Positions 7,583 to 42,288 of a stretch of 42,288 bases of DNA are shown piece by piece; position 1 is the first letter of the stretch, and the number at the start of each line of letters is the position of its first letter. Source of the DNA: a virus; UHGV virus genome UHGV-1358694; one strand, given 5' to 3'. Under the pieces are notes generated by a model. That model saw only the letters and a program-made list of their open reading frames with translations. It was not told where the DNA came from and made no database searches. A program made the position numbers and the translations under genes.

Positions 7583-9939
7583 TGCACATAGATTTAGAGG
7601 TCGAGAACCATGAATATTACGGCTCTAAAGCAAGCCCATACTGTCCGGATAACTACGTTGTGGAGTCAGCGTGGCGAATTGATACAACGCAGGCAGATGG
7701 AACAACAACGGTTGGTAGCACTCAGTCAGTTCGCTATGCTAACAGGGCGGAGTTCTTGGCAGGAAGCAGTGCAGGTGCTGAGAGAAGCTGGTTTGTTATC
7801 CCAGAAGACTGTTGGCTAATAGTAGCACACAACGCTGCCTACGAAATCTCCTGGTTCCTAACGTACCAGCGTCAGAAGTTTGAAGCCTTCCTCAAGCGCG
7901 GAGGCAGGGTGTTCTGCACAATGCACGGGGAATACATAGCTTCGGACTTTCAGAGCATGTATCCGTCACTGGACGAGACAGCTCCTAAGTACGGCGGTAC
8001 GCACAAAGTAGACGGGGTTAAGATTCTCTGGGAGCAGGGTGTGTTAACCTCCCAGATTGACCCGATGCTGCTGCATGACTACCTGGTTAACGGGGACATC
8101 CCGAACACGGCCCTGTGCTTCTATGGCCAGTGCGCTACGTTCGCCCAGCGCGGGCAGATGCAGTACGTGTGGGAGCGTATGGACGCTCTGCTGGCTTGGG
8201 CGTACTGCGAGTGGTTCGGCCTGTTCGTGAATATGCCAATTGCGCGCAAGAACCAGGAGGAGCAGGAGCAGCGCATCCGTGAGATTAAGCAGGAGCTGCA
8301 ACAGTACATCCCGAAGGACTTGCCGGAGACGCTGGATTTCAACTTCGGGTCGGACTTTCATATGTCTGCGCTGGTGTATGGTGGACCTATCAAGTACCGC
8401 AAGAAGGTACCCTATGACCCTCCGCAGTACGTCAAGGCCGACTACTGGCAAGTCGGGGACACTTGGGTTGCCGTGGATGACATGCCCGCACCGCCAGGTG
8501 CGACCACGTACAAGTCCGGTAAGAACAAGGGACTACCCAAAGTATTCCGCCTTGATACCGAGGAGGAGAAGCTCAAGTGGGAGGACGACCTTTACTTCTG
8601 CCCGGGACTGGTGAACATACAGGAGCTGCCGGAAGTTATCCGGGAGAAGTATGCGGAGCGTGGAGAGTTCCGACAGGCGCGCACCATGCAGGACGGTACG
8701 CCAGTATACAGCACCAGCACAGACGCAATGGAGGCGCTGGCCCGCCAAGGGTTCGAGTTCTGTAAGTTGGTGAATGAGCTGGCGGCGCTTGAGAAGGACA
8801 CCGGTACCTACTATTTACGGGAAGTTCTGGATGCAAACGGAGAAGTCAAAGAGCGGAAGGGAATGCTGCAGTACGTAATCCCCGAACGCCCAGATGGTTC
8901 CGGTATCATACACCACCGGCTGAATACTTGTGCCACTGTAACCGGGCGCCTGAGTAGCTCTAATCCGAACCTGCAGAACCTGCCCCGCCCGGATGAGGAC
9001 GGTGATGGGGTAGCTAAATCCAAGGTGAAGCAGGTGTTCACCAGTAGATTCGGGGACAACGGGCGTATCACTGAGGTTGACTACTCGGCACTGGAAGTGG
9101 TTATGTCCTGTGTACACACGGGTGACAAGAAACTGCTGGGGCTGCTGCAGAGTGGTACGGATATGCACTGCTACCGCCTAGCTTTCCGTGAAGGATTGGA
9201 TTACGACGAGGTGTACTACCGCTGTCACGATAAGACTTACCAAGACTATAGTACGTGGAAGACAAAGCGTTCGCATATCAAGACCCCTAGCTTTGCTGCG
9301 CAGTATGGGGCTTCCGCAAGGGGTGTAGCCTTCGCCGCGGGTTGTACAGTGGAATTCGCACAAGAGTTCCTAGATAACGAAGCGCGTATGTTCCCAACAA
9401 CCATCGGCTTCCGCGCTGTTGTCAAGGAAGAGGTGGAGCGTAACGGTGCGGAGGGTCGCATGTACCGGGAGCAAGCTGACGACGGCAGCTACCGAATCTA
9501 CCGCATTGGGACGTGGACCAGCCCTGCTGGTGCCCGATACAGCTTCCGTCAGAAAGAGCAGTGGAAAGAGGTTGTGCCCGGGCAGCGTAAGCAGAAGGTA
9601 ATGGACTACAAGGAAACTGAGATGGCGAACTACTGGTGCCAGGGGGAAGCGTTCTTCCTGATGGCGGTGGCGGCTGGTATGGTTCTGCGTGCACTCTTGG
9701 CCCGTGACTGGTTCGACAATCAGGTGTGCCTGATTACGAACGTACACGATGCATTGTATCTGGACAGCGCCAACCCTGAGGTTGGACGTGAGGCGAGCCT
9801 GCTGGTTAAGCAGTGCATGGAGGATGCGCCTAAGCGTATCCATCAGCTCTGGCCTAACTACGGTATCATTGGCGAGGTCCCGTTCCCAGCAGAGGCTGAG
9901 ATGGGTACGAGTATGTACAGTAAGGAGAAGGTAGAATGA
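7582..9939 (+). CDS. family A (T7-like) DNA polymerase with N-terminal 3'-5' exonuclease (786 aa)
   Basis: N-terminal MHIDLEVEN matches the Exo I D-x-E motif of T7 gp5 (MIVSDIEAN). The polymerase domain has RQ/K..YG motifs and a C-terminal VHDA.. motif. The track ORF 7564 extends upstream only through a TTG. The ATG at 7582 overlaps the HNH stop as TAATG. Confidence 0.9.
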   Translation: MHIDLEVENHEYYGSKASPYCPDNYVVESAWRIDTTQADGTTTVGSTQSVRYANRAEFLAGSSAGAERSWFVIPEDCWLIVAHNAAYEISWFLTYQRQKFEAFLKRGGRVFCTMHGEYIASDFQSMYPSLDETAPKYGGTHKVDGVKILWEQGVLTSQIDPMLLHDYLVNGDIPNTALCFYGQCATFAQRGQMQYVWERMDALLAWAYCEWFGLFVNMPIARKNQEEQEQRIREIKQELQQYIPKDLPETLDFNFGSDFHMSALVYGGPIKYRKKVPYDPPQYVKADYWQVGDTWVAVDDMPAPPGATTYKSGKNKGLPKVFRLDTEEEKLKWEDDLYFCPGLVNIQELPEVIREKYAERGEFRQARTMQDGTPVYSTSTDAMEALARQGFEFCKLVNELAALEKDTGTYYLREVLDANGEVKERKGMLQYVIPERPDGSGIIHHRLNTCATVTGRLSSSNPNLQNLPRPDEDGDGVAKSKVKQVFTSRFGDNGRITEVDYSALEVVMSCVHTGDKKLLGLLQSGTDMHCYRLAFREGLDYDEVYYRCHDKTYQDYSTWKTKRSHIKTPSFAAQYGASARGVAFAAGCTVEFAQEFLDNEARMFPTTIGFRAVVKEEVERNGAEGRMYREQADDGSYRIYRIGTWTSPAGARYSFRQKEQWKEVVPGQRKQKVMDYKETEMANYWCQGEAFFLMAVAAGMVLRALLARDWFDNQVCLITNVHDALYLDSANPEVGREASLLVKQCMEDAPKRIHQLWPNYGIIGEVPFPAEAEMGTSMYSKEKVE

Positions 9940-10244: not shown

Positions 10245-10299
10245 TTGACTCTGGCTCGATTCTGTGATTCACAGAGAATTAATGTGATACGAGTAGGAA
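10245..10299 (+). promoter_or_regulatory. AT-rich intergenic control region: -35-like TTGACT (10245-10250), palindrome TCTGTGATTCACAGA (10261-10275) and motif copy D (ttaatgtgatacgagtaggaa, 10279-10299)
   Basis: This is the only sizeable intergenic gap in the replication block. Copy D matches 17 of 21 positions of the 19-mer at 18323 and sits 20 nt upstream of the next gene. Confidence 0.45.
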
Positions 10300-18322: not shown

Positions 18323-18342
18323 TTAATGTTACCGGAGTAGGA
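18323..18342 (+). promoter_or_regulatory. Copy A of the recurring motif (ttaatgttaccggagtagga); candidate phage-RNAP promoter heading the structural block
   Basis: It lies in the 23-nt gap between the RNA polymerase stop and the ATG at 18343. The 19 nt from position 2 (taatgttaccggagtagga) recur exactly at 29850-29868. Confidence 0.5.
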
Positions 18343-35742: not shown

Positions 35743-36045
35743 ATGGCAGGGGCGGCTAAACGTAGTCGCCTCTCGGAGCTGCACCGCATGTTCACCGAGG
35801 CTTTGATTGAAGAAATCAAACAGTCTAAGGAAGATGAGGTGCCGCTCCCCGCCGCAGATAAATCGGTCATTGCTAAGTTCTTGAAGGATAATGACATTAC
35901 CGCGGATGCAGATTCCGCGGAGATGCAGGACCTTAGAGACGAGTTCGATGACGAACTAGCGGCGCGCAGAGAGGCGCGTAAGCAAGAGATTCTAAACAAA
36001 GTTGGTGGTTCAGACTCTGAGGACTTACTAGAAGGAATTGTCTAA
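35743..36045 (+). CDS. putative terminase small subunit (100 aa)
   Basis: Small, highly charged and helical, immediately upstream of the large terminase and overlapping it as TAATG. Assigned by position only. Confidence 0.5.
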   Translation: MAGAAKRSRLSELHRMFTEALIEEIKQSKEDEVPLPAADKSVIAKFLKDNDITADADSAEMQDLRDEFDDELAARREARKQEILNKVGGSDSEDLLEGIV

Positions 36046-37901
36046 TGGTATCGGTGAAGACTGCGCGACGATTGCGCATGCTCAACCAGAAACTTACTGG
36101 TTATAGCGCGAACCCGCGCAGTATTCCCAAAGAGGAGCGCGAGGACATCGCGATGATGATGGCAGCCGCGCTAAGCGACTTCCGGGAATTCGCATACATT
36201 GGTATGCGGTTCCTAGGCTTTACGCTTACTGACATGCAGGCCGACATTGCAGAGTACATGCAGAAGGGCCCTAGAAAGCGCATGGTGGCTGCGCAGCGTG
36301 GCGAGGCTAAGTCTACACTGGCTGCACTGTACGCCGTCTGGAGGCTCATACAGGACCAATCCTGTCGTATCCTGATTGTGTCCGGTGCAGAGAAACAGGC
36401 GTCCGACGTAGCTAACTTAATCATTCGTATGCTGGAAACCTGGCCGTTGCTGTGCTACTTGAAGGCTGACCCTACTCGTGGGGACCGTACTTCATTCGAA
36501 GGATATGATGTAAACTGCGACCTGAAACCCCTGGACAAGTCCGCCAGCGTCGCGTGCGTTGGTATCACCGCATCCCTGCAGGGGAAGCGTGCGGACCTGC
36601 TGATTCCAGATGATATCGAGACCACCAAGAACGGCTTAACGCAAACCCAACGTGAGCAGCTACTGATGATTTCTAAAGACTTCGCAGCTATCTGTACTCA
36701 TGGAGATATTCTGTACCTGGGTACACCTCAGACCAAGGACAGCATCTATAAAACCCTGCCGGGACGTGGCTTCGAGGTCCGCGTGTGGCCTGGGCGCATT
36801 CCGTCTGTTGAAATGGAAGAGAGATATGGAAGTACACTTGCTCCTTATATCCTGGAGCTTATTGAGCGCGGATATAAACGCACCGGCTTCGGCGTCGACG
36901 GGACGCTAGGCGAGAGCACGGACACCGGGCGCTACGACGAGGATGCGCTGATTGAAAAGGAACTGGACTTCGGTCCGGAAGGCTTCCAGCTGCAGTACAT
37001 GCTCGACACCACCCTGTCAGACCAAATGCGTACGCGTATCAAGCTTTCGGATATGCTGGTTTACTCCGGCAGCCAGGATTCATCCCCGGAGACGTTCTCC
37101 TACATCGCGGATCGCCGGTACATGTACCAGCACGAGCATGAGGGGATTATGGGCCAGCAGATGTACTTCCCGGCATTCTACGGGGACATGCACCTGCCGT
37201 ACCAGCATAAGGTGCTGGTGGTGGACCCAGCTGGTTGTGGCGGAGACGAAGTGTCCTACGCTGCTGGGGGTGCTGCGAACTCGTACATTCACCTATTCTC
37301 CGTGGGCGGCTTCCAAGGAGGTATCAGCGAAGAGAACATTGATAAACTAATTGACCTGTGCGTAGAGTTGGACATCCCGGATATGGTGGTGGAGAGCAAC
37401 ATGGGGCACGGTACCGTGTCTATGCTTATCCTGAACCGGCTGCGGGAGCGACGTCTCGCCGGTATCGGCGTAAGGGACCTGAACAACTCCACGCAGAAAG
37501 AGCGTCGTATAATCGACACAATCAGCCCAGTTACTCGACGTCACCGCCTGGTGGTGCATGAGCGTGCTATTCACGATGATATCAGCACTTGTATGGCGTA
37601 CTCCCGCGATAGACGTTGGTTGTACTCTGCGTTCGCGCAGTTGTCCGGTATCACGTATGACCGCGGTAGCCTGGCGAAGGATGACCGAGCAGATGCAATC
37701 GCCATGATGGTGGCTACGCTGAACGGGCATCTGGTGGAAGATGAGAAAGTGGTGGCTGAGCGTGAGTCTGAGAAGATGGCTCGGGCCTTCATTGAGAATC
37801 CACTGGATTGGGCACAAAGCAAAGTGTCTAAGGGCCTTCGGGGTGTAGCTGCTCGGCTGCAGAACCGCGGCAGAGGTAAACAACATAGAGGAAGAAGATA
37901 A
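36045..37901 (+). CDS. terminase large subunit (T7 gp19-like, 618 aa)
   Basis: Walker A-like QRGEAKSTLAALYAVW, Walker B ADLLIPDDIETTKN and a nuclease-domain VVDPAGCGGDEVSYAAGG motif. Confidence 0.9.
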   Translation: MVSVKTARRLRMLNQKLTGYSANPRSIPKEEREDIAMMMAAALSDFREFAYIGMRFLGFTLTDMQADIAEYMQKGPRKRMVAAQRGEAKSTLAALYAVWRLIQDQSCRILIVSGAEKQASDVANLIIRMLETWPLLCYLKADPTRGDRTSFEGYDVNCDLKPLDKSASVACVGITASLQGKRADLLIPDDIETTKNGLTQTQREQLLMISKDFAAICTHGDILYLGTPQTKDSIYKTLPGRGFEVRVWPGRIPSVEMEERYGSTLAPYILELIERGYKRTGFGVDGTLGESTDTGRYDEDALIEKELDFGPEGFQLQYMLDTTLSDQMRTRIKLSDMLVYSGSQDSSPETFSYIADRRYMYQHEHEGIMGQQMYFPAFYGDMHLPYQHKVLVVDPAGCGGDEVSYAAGGAANSYIHLFSVGGFQGGISEENIDKLIDLCVELDIPDMVVESNMGHGTVSMLILNRLRERRLAGIGVRDLNNSTQKERRIIDTISPVTRRHRLVVHERAIHDDISTCMAYSRDRRWLYSAFAQLSGITYDRGSLAKDDRADAIAMMVATLNGHLVEDEKVVAERESEKMARAFIENPLDWAQSKVSKGLRGVAARLQNRGRGKQHRGRR

Positions 37902-38888: not shown

Positions 38889-39132
38889 GGTAGGGGACAT
38901 GGTTGGGTCTGACCTCGCTACCAGGGCAGGTGCAGCAGTTACCGGAGCTACGGTATCAGGGGGTTGGTTGGCAGAGTTAATGAGCTGGAACTGGAGCACT
39001 ATCAGCTTCATCACTGCGACTGTGTGTGCAGTGCTAACCCTGGCGTGGAATGCGTATTACAAGCGACGTACATTCAAGCTCCTAGAGGAGCAGGCACGTA
39101 AGGGGACTATTAAATATGAGTTTAAGGACTAA
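38881..39132 (+). CDS. holin, probably pinholin-type (83 aa)
   Basis: Weakly hydrophobic Gly/Ala-rich first segment (AGAAVTGATVSGGWLAEL) and a second TMD (TISFITATVCAVLTLAW) with a charged C-terminus. Lies between the spanin candidate and the SAR endolysin. Confidence 0.55.
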   Translation: MIKVGDMVGSDLATRAGAAVTGATVSGGWLAELMSWNWSTISFITATVCAVLTLAWNAYYKRRTFKLLEEQARKGTIKYEFKD

Positions 39133-39724
39133 GGTTATTGCGGCCCTCACGGGGGCCACTATGCTTGGCGGAGCCATTACCGGAGTAGTCCAGCACAATG
39201 AGGGCCTGAGCCTCACCGCCTACAAAGATAGCGCCGGTATCCCTACTATCTGCTACGGGGAGACGAAGGGCGTCAAAATGGGCCAGAGAGCCACGCTGAG
39301 CGATTGTCAGAAGCAACTGATACAGTCAGCAGGGGAACATGCAAAGGCTCTTGATGGGCTTCCTATGCAGCTCTCGGACGTATCTCTACTGGGTGCGTTG
39401 GACTTCACGTACAACGTGGGTGTAGCCGGATTCAGCGGTAGCAAGGTTAAGGCCGATTTAAAGCGGTTGGATTATGTAGCTGCAGCTAAGTCCGTGCTGG
39501 ACTGGCGCTATATTAGTAAGTACCAGCAGAAGTCCCCTGGGGTTGGTTGGGTGTATAAGGGCAGTAACCGCTGGACATTCGACTGCTCCCAGTATATTAA
39601 TGGGCAGCGCAATAGGGTATGCTGGGGCCTATGGGAGCGCAGACAGTGGCAGAGCAAAGCTATTGGGAACCAGTACAAGAATGTGAATGCAGCGGTAGCT
39701 GCGCTTAAGAATGTTGGAGGTTAA
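39116..39724 (+). CDS. SAR endolysin (T4-lysozyme/GH24-type muramidase), 202 aa
   Basis: N-terminal signal-arrest-release-like segment KVIAALTGATMLGGAITGVV. Catalytic region NEGLSLTAYKDSAGIPTICYGETKG (E...D...T of phage lysozymes). Confidence 0.85.
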   Translation: MSLRTKVIAALTGATMLGGAITGVVQHNEGLSLTAYKDSAGIPTICYGETKGVKMGQRATLSDCQKQLIQSAGEHAKALDGLPMQLSDVSLLGALDFTYNVGVAGFSGSKVKADLKRLDYVAAAKSVLDWRYISKYQQKSPGVGWVYKGSNRWTFDCSQYINGQRNRVCWGLWERRQWQSKAIGNQYKNVNAAVAALKNVGG

Positions 39725-39725
39725 T

Positions 39726-39911
39726 ATGGCACTGGTTGAGCTTGTGCAAGCAAAGGCACCGGTACTGGCGGAGGCTACTACAGACTCCATTGGTGGGGTA
39801 CTACAAGGGGTTGCTGTTGCTGACGCAGCAGATACAACTCCAGAGGCACTGGCGGTTACTGTAGCGGAGCTGTTGGCGTCTCTGCGGGCCTCTGGGGCTA
39901 TCGCTGAGTAA
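39726..39911 (+). CDS. small acidic protein (61 aa)
   Basis: GGAGG 5 nt upstream. Last ORF before the non-coding terminal region. Confidence 0.45.
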   Translation: MALVELVQAKAPVLAEATTDSIGGVLQGVAVADAADTTPEALAVTVAELLASLRASGAIAE

Positions 39912-40050
39912 GTGCTAGGGTAATCCACAAGGTGAGCTACGGGACCTCTTAGGGTGACTCTGGGTGATTCTGCGGGTGCACGTCTATACCTGGACCTGAA
40001 ATTTATTAGACTCACGCGAGGCCCTCCCTCACCCTCAGCGACACCAATTG

Positions 40051-40063
40051 CCCCCATAGGGGG
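40051..40063. other. perfect hairpin cccccataggggg next to the poly-G run
   Basis: 5-bp G/C stem with a 3-nt loop, directly upstream of the poly-G tract. Confidence 0.4.
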
Positions 40064-40080
40064 TGCCTAGCGTCAATTTA

Positions 40081-40155
<75 letters not shown>

Positions 40156-40159
40156 TGGA

Positions 40160-40850
40160 TGGGTGGACGTCTAGCCGTCTAGATGGCCCTAGGGCGCTCC
40201 CAGCGGGCCTGTGCTGCGTTCTAGGGCTATCGCTAGTGCTACCCTATGCCTATCCCTGCGCGTCCACTAGGGCGCTTCCTGTGCTCTCTGTGGGTCATAG
40301 GGGCGTGCTCTGCCTTGCTTATTTTGTGCGTCCATTGTGGGCCTGCCTAGTGCCTGCGCAGTGGGGCCATAGGGTATGCCTAGTGCTATCCCTAGTGCGT
40401 ACTAGGCTATCCACTGGCTATCCTTAGTGCTTTACATTGTGCTGATTCTATGCTACGCTGCGCGCTCCCCACTAGGGCGCACTTCCACTACCCAGCACAC
40501 TCCAGCGCTATCCCAATGCTATCCCTTTGCTCTTACTTTCATTCGAAAGCTATTATGAAATGAAGTAACCGGAGTAGGAGGGTTTTAGGGCACTATATAC
40601 ACTACTACTCACTATGCACTCACTAGTATGTCCCTGTGCCTACGCAGTAGGCTGACATACCTACATAGTCACCGCATCACTCCGTGTCCTTACACTGCGT
40701 ACAGACACTGCGTTCTGCTCCATGTAGTATTATATAGTGTTAGGTAGTATTGGTTCATACTGGCTAGTATTGGCTAGACGTGGCTAGCAGTGGCTACAGC
40801 CAGTGTCGGCACAGTGCTATCCCCAGTGGCTATCCCTAGAATATATAAGG
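40160..40850 (+). repeat. non-coding terminal region packed with short direct repeats (gctatccc x8, tgcctagtgc x2, ggctag x3, tagtattgg x2)
   Basis: The motifs recur on one strand only. No ORF has an RBS here. The region lies between the right-end lysis genes and the first early gene. Confidence 0.6.
40566..40579 (+). promoter_or_regulatory. Copy C of the recurring motif (taaccggagtagga) in the terminal non-coding region
   Basis: Matches 16 of 20 positions of copy A, with the core accggagtagga identical. No start codon follows. Confidence 0.4.
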
Positions 40851-40858
40851 AGTTATAC

Positions 40859-41413
40859 ATGTTACCGTCTAGTCGGGCTATGGCTAAAGCCACTGGTAGT
40901 ACATACTACTACACAGGGAAGCCCTGTAAGTATCAGCACATAGCGAAACGCCTCACCAGTTCAGGTGAATGCTCTGAGTGCTTTAAGGTTAGGAGTACCA
41001 GCCCCGCCCGTAAGGAGCGCATGCGAGAGTATCATAAGGTTTATCAGGTACAGAAAGCTGAGGCTTTAAGAGAGTACCGCAAGACACGCCGACCTAAGCA
41101 CATTATGACAGAGGAGCAGTTACAGCGTAAGGCTCGCCACAGTGCGCGCTACCGTGCTGCGCGCACTCAATCCGTACCTTCATGGTATGGTGAGTGGGAT
41201 GAGTTCGTTATGTTGGAGGCTATCGCTTTAGCAGCCGAGAGGGCAGAGTGTACGGGTATAGCGTGGCACGTAGACCATATGCTGCCCCTAAAGGCTAAAG
41301 GGGTATGTGGCTTGCACTGTGCTGATAATATTCAGGTGATACCCGCTACGCTTAACACGCATAAGTGTAACAGGCTGCTATTCACGGAGCCTTTGGAGTG
41401 GCTAAAGGCATAA
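40859..41413 (+). CDS. HNH endonuclease with an N-terminal Cys-rich region (184 aa); first early gene
   Basis: AAGGAG 6 nt upstream. The track ORF from 40790 has no RBS. C-terminal WHVDHMLPLKAKGVCGLHCADNIQVIPATLNTHKCNR is an HNH motif (H-x-D-H...N...N). N-terminus has CKYQH...CSEC. Confidence 0.7.
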   Translation: MLPSSRAMAKATGSTYYYTGKPCKYQHIAKRLTSSGECSECFKVRSTSPARKERMREYHKVYQVQKAEALREYRKTRRPKHIMTEEQLQRKARHSARYRAARTQSVPSWYGEWDEFVMLEAIALAAERAECTGIAWHVDHMLPLKAKGVCGLHCADNIQVIPATLNTHKCNRLLFTEPLEWLKA

Positions 41414-41419
41414 ACTTGA

Positions 41420-41456
41420 GGTAATACAGTGTTATAAATGCTGTATTACCTTTTTT
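41420..41456 (+). terminator. rho-independent terminator
   Basis: Stem ggtaatacag / ctgtattacc (10 bp) with an 11-nt loop, followed by TTTTTT and a second T6 run. Confidence 0.85.
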
Positions 41457-41593
41457 CTAAAAAGTGCTTGCTTTTTTAAATCTGCTAGGTGTATAGTTAT
41501 CCCATCGAAAGCGATACGGGATACCGGGTAGCTCTAGATTCCAGAGTCGACTGGATAAGTAGACAGCCTGATAAGTCATATGAAAAACAGGTA

Positions 41594-41622
41594 TTGACAA
41601 TAGCAGTAAGCGGTTTTATAGT
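41594..41622 (+). promoter_or_regulatory. near-consensus sigma70 promoter (TTGACA - 17 bp - TATAGT) with an A-rich upstream stretch; probable early host-RNAP promoter
   Basis: -35 TTGACA at 41594-41599, a 17-nt spacer, -10 TATAGT at 41617-41622. It lies after the terminator and upstream of the genes at 41869 onward. Confidence 0.65.
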
Positions 41623-41868
41623 TCGAATCATGTTGCGGAGCAGTGTAGCGCCTAAAGGTGCTCTGACCACTAACCCTAGATACATGGTAGTAGTAAGCGT
41701 GCCGGACGTTATCACCGGGGTTCTGAGGCAAACCATACTGCCGAGGCGAGAGCAGCTCGCTCCTCTGAATCGAGGGAACAAGGCGCGGAGTGTATCCCGC
41801 AAAGAGCATATAACATAGCGTAGCAGTAACAAGGCTGCGCTAGATTATGTTCTCTGAGAGGTGAGATT

Positions 41869-42066
41869 ATGCGCAAAGCAAAACGACTAGCATTGCGGCG
41901 GAATATGCAGTTATCACTGAACCCTACCGACGACGTGCCACTCACTGTGAAGCCCAGCAAACAAGGACTTAGCAGCGAGCACAGGGTGAGGGGAAAGCAA
42001 AAACAAAAGGGCGGCAGTAAACAGCCTAGTGGGTGGCCTACTGTTAACTCCCAATTTGGGCACTAA
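41869..42066 (+). CDS. small very basic early protein (65 aa)
   Basis: GAGGTGAG 5 nt upstream. Lys/Arg/Gln-rich, probably disordered. Confidence 0.5.
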   Translation: MRKAKRLALRRNMQLSLNPTDDVPLTVKPSKQGLSSEHRVRGKQKQKGGSKQPSGWPTVNSQFGH

Positions 42067-42134
42067 TTACAGCCTATAGCATCCTATGGGGTGCTATGTG
42101 AAGTAATTACCTAAACCAATCAACGAGGTGCATC

Positions 42135-42288
42135 GTGACTCATTCAACTGGTAAAGTATTCAAGCTCACCGCTGCTGGTAGCATCCGTAAAGCTCTTGGC
42201 GATGTAGTGGAAGCAAAGCGTAACATCACTATCAGCGCGCTATTTCACGGCCTGATTAGCAGCAACGTCTCATGGGCTACGGATATGC
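42135..42288 (+). CDS. partial ORF running off the window end (GTG start; would terminate 21 nt into position 1-21 if the sequence is circular)
   Basis: GAGGTG 4 nt upstream of the GTG. The frame stays open to the window end. Joined to positions 1-21 it would read ...ATDMQRSAWV* (58 aa). Confidence 0.3.
   Translation, partial: MTHSTGKVFKLTAAGSIRKALGDVVEAKRNITISALFHGLISSNVSWATDM

Follow-up and report, generated by a model that had tools for sequence, protein, structure and literature searches.

Just inside its left terminal repeat, phage T7 carries an array of a short heptamer, CCTAAAG, present in 11 copies between nucleotides (nt) 17 and 332. All of them are on the plus strand and none on the minus strand; three lie within the 160-bp repeat and eight just after it, with a period of 12 to 14 nt (lag 13, z = 9.2). 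The T7 arrays were reportedly named "SRL" and "SRR" by Dunn and Studier in 1983, and T3 has 11 copies of CYTAAAG at its left end. The T7-like Yersinia fPS phages are reported to differ by 11 to 34 repeats lying between the left repeat and promoter P1, and the repeats beside the right repeat and the poly-C tracts inside the repeats vary as well; the fPS repeats were presented as microevolutionary variation, with no function assigned (PMC5923468). Here, we analyze the virus genome UHGV-1358694, a stretch of 42,288 nt (the window), in which a noncoding region contains a similar one-strand array of the motifs GCTATCC and CYTAGKG. These motifs are very probably the Drulisvirus version of the T7-group short-repeat array just inside the left direct terminal repeat (DTR). 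We found no earlier description of a Drulisvirus left-end array, and the paper that defined the genus Kp34likevirus mentions neither the terminal repeats nor the array (PMC4411677).

Clustering, phasing, and conservation of the motifs

The window is a Drulisvirus, that is, a KP34-like Klebsiella podophage (Autographiviridae, Slopekvirinae), with core genes 94 to 95% identical to those of many deposited phages. The genes for the small and large terminase subunits (35743 to 37901) and the endolysin (39116 to 39724) are followed by a noncoding region (39913 to 40849) and then by an open reading frame (ORF) at 40850 to 41413. Motif enrichment was measured by comparing positions 40154 to 40849 with the rest of the window. 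CTATCC starts there at 40250, 40386, 40407, 40418, 40508, 40519, 40817, and 40830, always on the plus strand and never on the reverse strand, and seven of these copies have a leading G (GCTATCC at 40385, 40406, 40417, 40507, 40518, 40816, and 40829). The eight copies compare with 0.19 expected (p = 4e-11; Bonferroni, 1.7e-7), six copies of CTATCCC compare with 0.03, and 16 copies of CTAG compare with 1.24 (p = 4.5e-13). Four copies each of CTAGTGC and CTAGGGC fall within this region, against none and one, respectively, in the remaining window. Over the range of 39913 to 40849, CTAG[GT]GC occurs eight times on the plus strand, with a single copy elsewhere in the window. The sequence TGCCTAGTGC is present twice (40344 and 40377), and two other motifs recur at exact steps: TGGCTA[GC] four times every 10 nt (40761, 40771, 40781, and 40791) and TAGTATT three times every 20 nt (40725, 40745, and 40765). 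Counted over the whole window, CTATCC is unremarkable (25 observed versus 19 expected), and the signal is therefore one of local clustering and strand bias, not of whole-window abundance.

The first-pass annotation of this DNA, made by a model from the letters and a list of ORFs, had reported eight same-strand copies in about 700 bp. All eight were recovered, its coordinates being right within 1 to 2 nt. The other motifs on its list are real and more regular than it described. It was also right in seeing no credible ORF: the longest has 63 amino acids and a GTG start, and the indels among relatives are not multiples of three. Together with the inconsistent ORF annotation in relatives, this led us to reject a coding function.

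Starting from the left end, the order of elements is terminus, palindrome, variable G tract, CTAG-rich repeat, boundary box, and the ca. 11-nt-periodic array, after which come a putative phage promoter resembling T7 phiOL, 10-nt-periodic repeats, the last motif cluster (cluster C), and finally the early genes and host promoters (Table 1). GCTATCC alternates with CYTAGKG in the array, whose consecutive units are spaced 11, 13, 11, 11, 11, 12, 10, 11, 11, and 12 nt apart. The lag-11 autocorrelation of this phased part gave a z value of 4.1, with the highest phase coherence at a period of 11 to 11.5 nt, and coding controls gave nothing comparable to this lag-11 periodicity. CCTAGTG is found in it at 40346, 40379, and 40391, while the GCTATCC copies at 40385, 40406, and 40417 (cluster A) occupy the spacers of three units. 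Clusters A and B flank an invariant block of ca. 65 nt, and relatives have one to three copies at cluster B. Farther downstream (40577 to 40849), periodicity was detected at lag 10 (z = 5.2). In most relatives, also in those without the HNH-like ORF that follows it here, cluster C is located ca. 700 to 830 nt from the left end; KpV71 has no cluster C. Motifs of the second type are found on both flanks, with CYTAGGG twice on the right flank and CTAG[GT]GC four times inside the repeat.

Conservation was studied in three panels, namely, 11 left ends derived from GenBank, 17 IMG/VR contigs, and an alignment of 20 genomes. Scanning viral contigs with the 14-mer CCCCCATAGGGGGT returned mostly unrelated sequences, and only the 17 contigs with a Drulisvirus context were used. 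The 537 nt from 40313 to 40849 match 244 phage records at 77 to 90% identity, nearly all of them unannotated here. The 11 left ends contain 76 CTATCC sites, 76 on the plus strand versus 0 on the minus strand, with an extended consensus of G-CTATCC-C-T-A-G and spacings of 11 nt (24 times), 12 nt (15 times), 21 nt (8 times), and 23 nt (3 times). Full-length IMG/VR contigs have four to nine CTATCC copies downstream of the palindrome, all on the plus strand, and no minus-strand copy was found in the array context of this panel. More than 25 other Drulisvirus genomes have 3 to 10 copies, gained or lost in units of 11 to 12 nt; examples are the four tandem 12-mers of JKT1 and the three cluster B copies of P1010. 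Unrelated units of 11 to 13 nt are also expanded in single genomes (CACACTCAGCA four times in K2044 and repeats of GGGCCATAGTG in SFN6B and SU552A). In the 20-genome alignment, the GCTATCC columns were 92% identical to the window versus 76% for the other array columns, a value reached in 15 of 20,000 permutations within the array. The GCTATCC and CTAG motifs are real and conserved.

Genome ends and neighboring features

The contig is a circularized, circularly permuted assembly of a linear genome with the DTR collapsed to a single copy, since one ORF reads across the end of the window into its start and no second copy of any long segment was found within the window. In the relative fHe-Kpn01 (MN380459), PhageTerm, restriction analysis, ligation, and Sanger sequencing established blunt ends and a 222-bp DTR (nt 1 to 222) (PMC7291057). 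Its left end, which begins CCTCACCCTG, aligns exactly to window position 40027, and the end of its DTR falls opposite position ca. 40310. The annotated repeats of KpV71 (1 to 246, 246 bp) and KP34 (1 to 216, 216 bp) agree with the DTR predicted in this way. The assignment of the motifs to the terminal region of a T7-group genome, made in the first-pass annotation, is borne out by these ends. Its suggestion that the repeat block might lie inside the terminal repeat was correct only for 40160 to ca. 40311, a segment with a single CTATCC copy; the remaining seven are located between the repeat and the first ORF. Deposited repeat lengths disagree among relatives (119, 149, 212, 216, 222, or 246 bp in records such as JKT1, F19, SU552A, NTUH-K2044-K1-1, and KpV71), and the annotated "DTR" of JKT1 spans the array, not the true end. 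Nonhomologous "hypothetical protein" ORFs are also annotated over the repeat and array in deposited relatives.

Table 1 Features of the left-end region and related genes in the window
Feature	Position	Strand	Basis or remark
Small terminase	35743-36045		Pfam PF11123, family of T7 gp18
Large terminase subunit	36045-37901		
Variable short repeats of the right flank (CTAGGGTAA, CTTAGGGTGA, CTGGGTGA, GCGGGTGC)	39913-39974	+	
Conserved block abutting the DTR start, candidate recognition context of the left-end cut	39975-40026	+	Kept in 17/17 Drulisvirus junctions
Predicted DTR, single collapsed copy	40027-~40311	+	Alignment to fHe-Kpn01, KpV71, and KP34
Predicted left terminus, CCTCAC...	40027	+	Alignment to fHe-Kpn01 end
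Palindrome CCCCCATAGGGGG	40051-40063	.	25 nt from predicted left terminus
Poly-G tract (G21 C G50), 72 nt	40081-40152	+	Inside DTR, 17 nt after palindrome
CTAG[GT]GC x4 (40189, 40221, 40233, 40267) and single in-repeat CTATCC (40250-40255)	40189-40280	+	
Boundary box CCTTGCTTATTTTG, inner edge of repeat	40313-40326	+	Conserved sequence
Phased array, 11 consecutive units	40334-40442	+	YAGTG-like core every 10-13 nt
Invariant block of ~65 nt between clusters A and B	40426-40492	+	Near-100% conserved, 20 distinct genomes
Cluster B, two GCTATCC 11 nt apart	40507-40524	+	~40-55 nt upstream of phage promoter
Invariant promoter-proximal block, including small palindrome CTTTCATTCGAAAG (40536-40549)	40528-40560	+	
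KP34 RNA polymerase promoter homologue TGAAGTAACCGGAGTA, positional counterpart of phiOL	40561-40576	+	Position, 3 mismatches to 16-mer
CACTA x4, ~10-nt steps	40591-40625	+	Just downstream of phage promoter
TAGTATT x3 (20-nt steps) and TGGCTA[GC] x4 (10-nt steps)	40725-40797	+	
Cluster C, two GCTATCC 13 nt apart	40816-40835	+	Just upstream of ribosome-binding site of first ORF
First ORF, endonuclease VII/HNH-like	40850-41413	+	phrog_1035, E = 4e-24

At the other side of the predicted terminus, the sequence corresponding to 39913 to 39974 was variable across the 17 junctions, with GGTATC[CT]C repeats there in several relatives. These short repeats would lie upstream of the terminal repeat in the concatemer and may represent a weak counterpart of the T7 right-side array. 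The conserved block that separates them from the terminus is duplicated in one IMG/VR contig (L117). The boundary box has its core, CTTATTTTG, at the same position in 11 of 11 panel genomes, a position that we take to be that of the T7 concatemer-junction RNA polymerase pause signal (ATCTGTT). A terminator or pause hairpin at this inner edge, flagged at 40300 to 40316 by a simple scan, was rejected. Given that the consensus fold of 10 genomes was essentially without covariation (only -0.11 kcal/mol), the box is treated here as a conserved DNA sequence only, without a covariation-supported hairpin.

The homologue of the poly-G tract measures 4 to 19 nt in the 17 IMG/VR contigs and 0 to 17 nt in GenBank relatives, and some relatives' records start or break at this run. 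It is, on this comparison, a genuine hypervariable homopolymer site, and its length of 72 nt in the window probably reflects over-extension during assembly or sequencing.

In vitro transcription served to define the strong promoter of the KP34 RNA polymerase, T(A/G)ATGTTACAGGAGTA, one copy of which lies at KP34 nt 475 to 490 (PMC6834552). With up to three mismatches, the window matches it only at 10280, 18324, 29850, and 40561, those at 18324 and 29850 having one mismatch each. The element at 40561, kept in 11 of 11 panel genomes, is by its position the homologue of KP34 promoter S2. The CTATCC sites were rejected as phage promoters, as they do not match this experimentally defined sequence, and also as a cluster of sigma-70 promoters of the T7 A1-A3 type, as they have no match to the sigma-70 hexamers (-35 and -10, 16 to 18 nt apart). 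A standard sigma-70 scan found no promoter in 40154 to 40849. Under relaxed settings, one plus-strand candidate appeared in the invariant block and one leftward candidate on the minus strand near 40757, neither of them at CTATCC. In the 20 distinct Drulisvirus genomes, conservation of the block between clusters A and B exceeds that of the motifs; the block contains TTTACA-N17-TGcTACGCT (40432 to 40460), a weak match to a possible extended -10 promoter.

Beyond the array, the first ORF is found in only a subset of relatives (KpV71, P1010, and PSK2); KP34, F19, and others lack it. A terminator with a 16-bp stem (41418 to 41452) comes after this ORF, which has the appearance of a mobile insertion separating the repeat array from the early promoters. 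A sigma-70 promoter is located at 41594 to 41622. It is a strong one (TTGACA-N17-TATAGT, 11 of 12 matches) and, together with its upstream region (41536 to 41622), ca. 88% identical to the T7 A2 region (T7 nt 541 to 605). This module matches 457 phage records, mostly T7-like Studiervirinae, and ca. 26 records over at least 80% of its length, those listed being all of Drulisvirus type; the early promoter of KP34 itself is different. These matches suggest a promoter module shared or exchanged between subfamilies. The 32-nt motif AGCCTATAGCGTCCTACGGGGCGCTATGTGAA, for which the description of the genus put forward a role as nick site or phage promoter (PMC4411677), has a copy near 42066 to 42100. 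The experimentally defined KP34 RNA polymerase promoters have other sequences (PMC6834552), and the nick mapped in fHe-Kpn01 (nt 7873) is at a position other than that of the AGCCTATAGCGTCCTACGGGGCGCTATGTGAA copy. Further identities were rejected for the region. Rfam covariance models had no match at an E value of 1 or below on either strand of 39800 to 42288, which speaks against a known structured RNA family. Protection from RecBCD was dismissed, as the three Chi sites (GCTGGTGG) of the window all fall outside the region, and a MetJ-box-like tandem (ACGTCTAG/CCGTCTAG) at 40166 to 40181 is not conserved in relatives.

Possible roles of the array

Regarding function, the leading reading, still a tentative one, is that the array would be a phased binding lattice for a phage-encoded protein of the concatemer junction or of packaging, in which we infer both the binding and the packaging role. 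Taking the identity of the array and this packaging-protein lattice together, we place the probability of the explanation at roughly 0.55. Same-strand cores repeated once per helical turn would present one face of the DNA and so could form a multivalent binding lattice. The prime candidate for its ligand would be the small terminase (PF11123), either by itself or together with the large subunit and a phage RNA polymerase that has paused. Recognition by terminase or another DNA-binding protein had been suggested in the first-pass annotation and is plausible. Packaging in T7 runs from right to left, and if this holds here, the array would be the last DNA met before the left-end cut. Because of that location, and because it adjoins the repeat boundary where T7-type maturation starts, the array could position or slow the packaging and repeat-duplication machinery.

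Two considerations favor a ligand encoded by the phage over one from the host. Phages whose enterobacterial hosts are close relatives have different motifs, and the small terminase of the window and T7 gp18, both in Pfam PF11123 and thus homologous at the family level, have diverged beyond BLAST detection (pairwise BLASTP of the two gave no alignment). Such divergence of the small terminase fits the divergence of the DNA motifs. An extended version, in which the lattice and the end signature (YCTCAC, the CCCCCATAG palindrome at +25, and the boundary box) would form a platform where the PF11123 small terminase directs the left-end cut and repeat duplication, perhaps with the participation of a paused phage RNA polymerase, seems doubtful to us. 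The cut and duplication step of T7-type maturation is still described as not fully understood (PMC3350473). If the platform existed, the lineage-specific motifs would be co-evolving recognition codes that confer packaging specificity between co-infecting relatives.

Several observations weigh against the packaging-protein lattice. Tandem slippage alone yields same-strand copies and a spacing of 11 to 12 nt, which makes strand bias and phasing weaker evidence of function, and the independent evidence for orientation comes from only four locations (the in-repeat copy and clusters A, B, and C), expected by chance in about 1 of 8 cases. Conservation in the region is highest in the invariant blocks and not in the motifs, and when the cores were compared with all columns, those blocks included, their conservation was marginal (1,437 of 20,000 permutations, p about 0.07). 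Given that the copy number ranges from 3 to 10 among close relatives and that KpV71 does without cluster C, no exact architecture is required. The T7 heptamer flanks both sides, whereas GCTATCC has no copy on the right flank of the window. Finally, our literature search found no binding, footprint, or genetic data on the arrays of the window or of T7.

Slippage leads to the alternative that the motifs are a neutral by-product of a slippage or recombination hot spot beside the repeat, where units of 11 to 13 nt duplicate and decay without any sequence-specific function. Tandem duplication alone would account for the common strand and the period, copy number does shift by whole 11- to 12-nt units (JKT1 and P1010), and unrelated units have expanded here too (K2044, SFN6B, and SU552A). 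However, neutral decay does not predict that cores are more conserved than spacers within the array, as the permutations indicated, nor that four separate places share one core but differ in its spacers, that arrays persist across the genus at 77 to 90% identity, or that analogous arrays exist in four subfamilies, and we regard it as unlikely. Iterons of a replication origin, bound by a phage replication protein and acting with the phiOL-like promoter and AT-richer DNA in RNA polymerase-primed replication, are slightly less likely again. T7 phiOL acts as a secondary origin; in the window, the putative phage promoter follows immediately after cluster B, the direct repeats show phasing, and GC content drops to 42 to 43% at 40500 to 40650 versus ca. 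54% genome-wide. Yet no initiator gene lies next to the array, cluster C and the in-repeat copy are far from the promoter, and we know of no T7-type origin that uses iterons. Besides, the RNA polymerase gene comes after the replication genes in this genus, so that an origin primed by this enzyme would fire late.

Direct repeats with an 11-nt period are also the usual layout for tandem winged-helix binders of the OmpR/PhoB type, which would suit sites for a phage or host regulator controlling the phiOL-like, the possible sigma-70, or the early promoters. Clusters A and B are upstream and downstream, respectively, of the possible extended -10 element (40432 to 40460), and cluster B is ca. 40 to 55 nt upstream of the phage promoter. 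We nevertheless judge this improbable, as the standard promoter scan of 40154 to 40849 was empty, CTATCC is unlike both the sigma-70 hexamers and the KP34 promoter, and a host regulator would not predict different motifs in T7, SP6, and KP34, which have closely related hosts. Among host proteins, DnaA deserves mention on account of CTATCCACT at 40407, which agrees with the DnaA box TTATCCACA in 7 of its 9 positions; further points are the core TATCC, phasing at 11 nt (as in the low-affinity DnaA sites of oriC), and a CTATCCACTGG copy kept in most relatives. An array for DnaA or another host nucleoid protein is very improbable all the same, since seven of the eight copies stop short of the ACA part of the box, replication in the T7 group is independent of DnaA, and the arrays of other lineages on related hosts have unrelated motifs. 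Lastly, the adjacent 72-nt poly-G is a strong outlier, probably over-extended, and the contig is circularly permuted with a collapsed terminal repeat, all of which could point to an assembly artifact or misjoin at the genome ends. For the array itself, this caveat of the first-pass annotation can be discarded almost entirely: the array is found site by site in more than 25 independent assemblies, among them the Sanger-era KP34 and the end-mapped fHe-Kpn01, and misassembly applies to the neighboring poly-G run instead.

A short-repeat array at this site is an ordinary family feature of the T7 group, with T7 as the long-known case and the T7-like Yersinia phages as a documented one, and would not surprise a specialist. 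Its recognition serves annotation, the quality control of assemblies, and phage engineering. Drulisviruses belong to the Klebsiella phages most used in therapy, and several records have spurious ORFs or inconsistent repeat boundaries in the left-end region. Recognizing a T7-type end architecture allows assemblies to be oriented and trimmed correctly and draws attention to the poly-G tract, where assembly errors are likely, and it shows genome engineers which noncoding DNA should not be removed casually. What short-repeat arrays beside T7-group terminal repeats do is a question for which the literature available gave us no answer, and the Drulisvirus array offers a compact, naturally variable substrate for asking it.

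Comparison with other phage ends

In phage lambda (the R sites of cosB, and cosQ) and SPP1 (the pacL and pacR boxes), short oriented sites by the cleavage site organize an oligomeric small terminase, and cosQ signals termination shortly ahead of the final cut. Binding has been demonstrated in those systems, which have unrelated small-terminase families and sequences, and their likeness to the Drulisvirus array is one of mechanism only. The Yersinia fPS phages belong to another subfamily, Studiervirinae, and have other motifs, but their repeats match the copy number variation and the variable poly-G seen in the group of the window.

Oriented arrays of short motifs had been called typical of the T7 group at this position in the first-pass annotation, and a direct comparison with T7, T3, SP6, and phiKMV agrees. 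SP6 has 13 copies of CTTAGT(G) on one strand between nt 83 and 570, in steps of 10 to 12 nt (lag 12, z = 4.9), and its CTTAGTG resembles the CTTAGTG and CCTAGTG units of the window. In phiKMV, CCTGGC(T) occurs 10 times (lag 11, z = 3.4). Both phages share with the window an element of the CCCC(C)ATAG type ca. 25 to 30 nt from the terminus, whereas their array motifs are lineage specific; the arrays are unannotated in both records.

T7 differs from the window in its motif, CCTAAAG instead of GCTATCC plus CYTAGKG with a period nearer 11 nt, in that invariant blocks divide the window array into three clusters, and in carrying its heptamer also to the left of the right-hand repeat, where the window has no GCTATCC. 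GCTATCC is, as far as the compared sequences tell, a Drulisvirus-specific partner motif. The CYTAGKG units look like the counterpart of CCTAAAG; copies are found within the repeat, on either flank of it, and right behind the palindrome. In T7, too, the array sits just inside the left repeat; phiOL and then the host promoters A1-A3 come after it, an order that the putative promoter at 40561 would match here. At the very end, T7 and Drulisvirus, which are placed in different subfamilies, have CCCCCATAGGGGGT[A/G]CCTA at the same offset (ca. 25 nt) from a YCTCAC terminus; T7 nt 26 to 44, comprising the identical palindrome and the adjacent T[A/G]CCTA, match the window at 18 of 19 positions, and related CCCC(C)ATAG elements are found at nt 25 to 35 of T3, SP6, and phiKMV. 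The YCTCAC terminus and CCCCCATAGGGGGT[A/G]CCTA together are probably a family-wide end-processing element.

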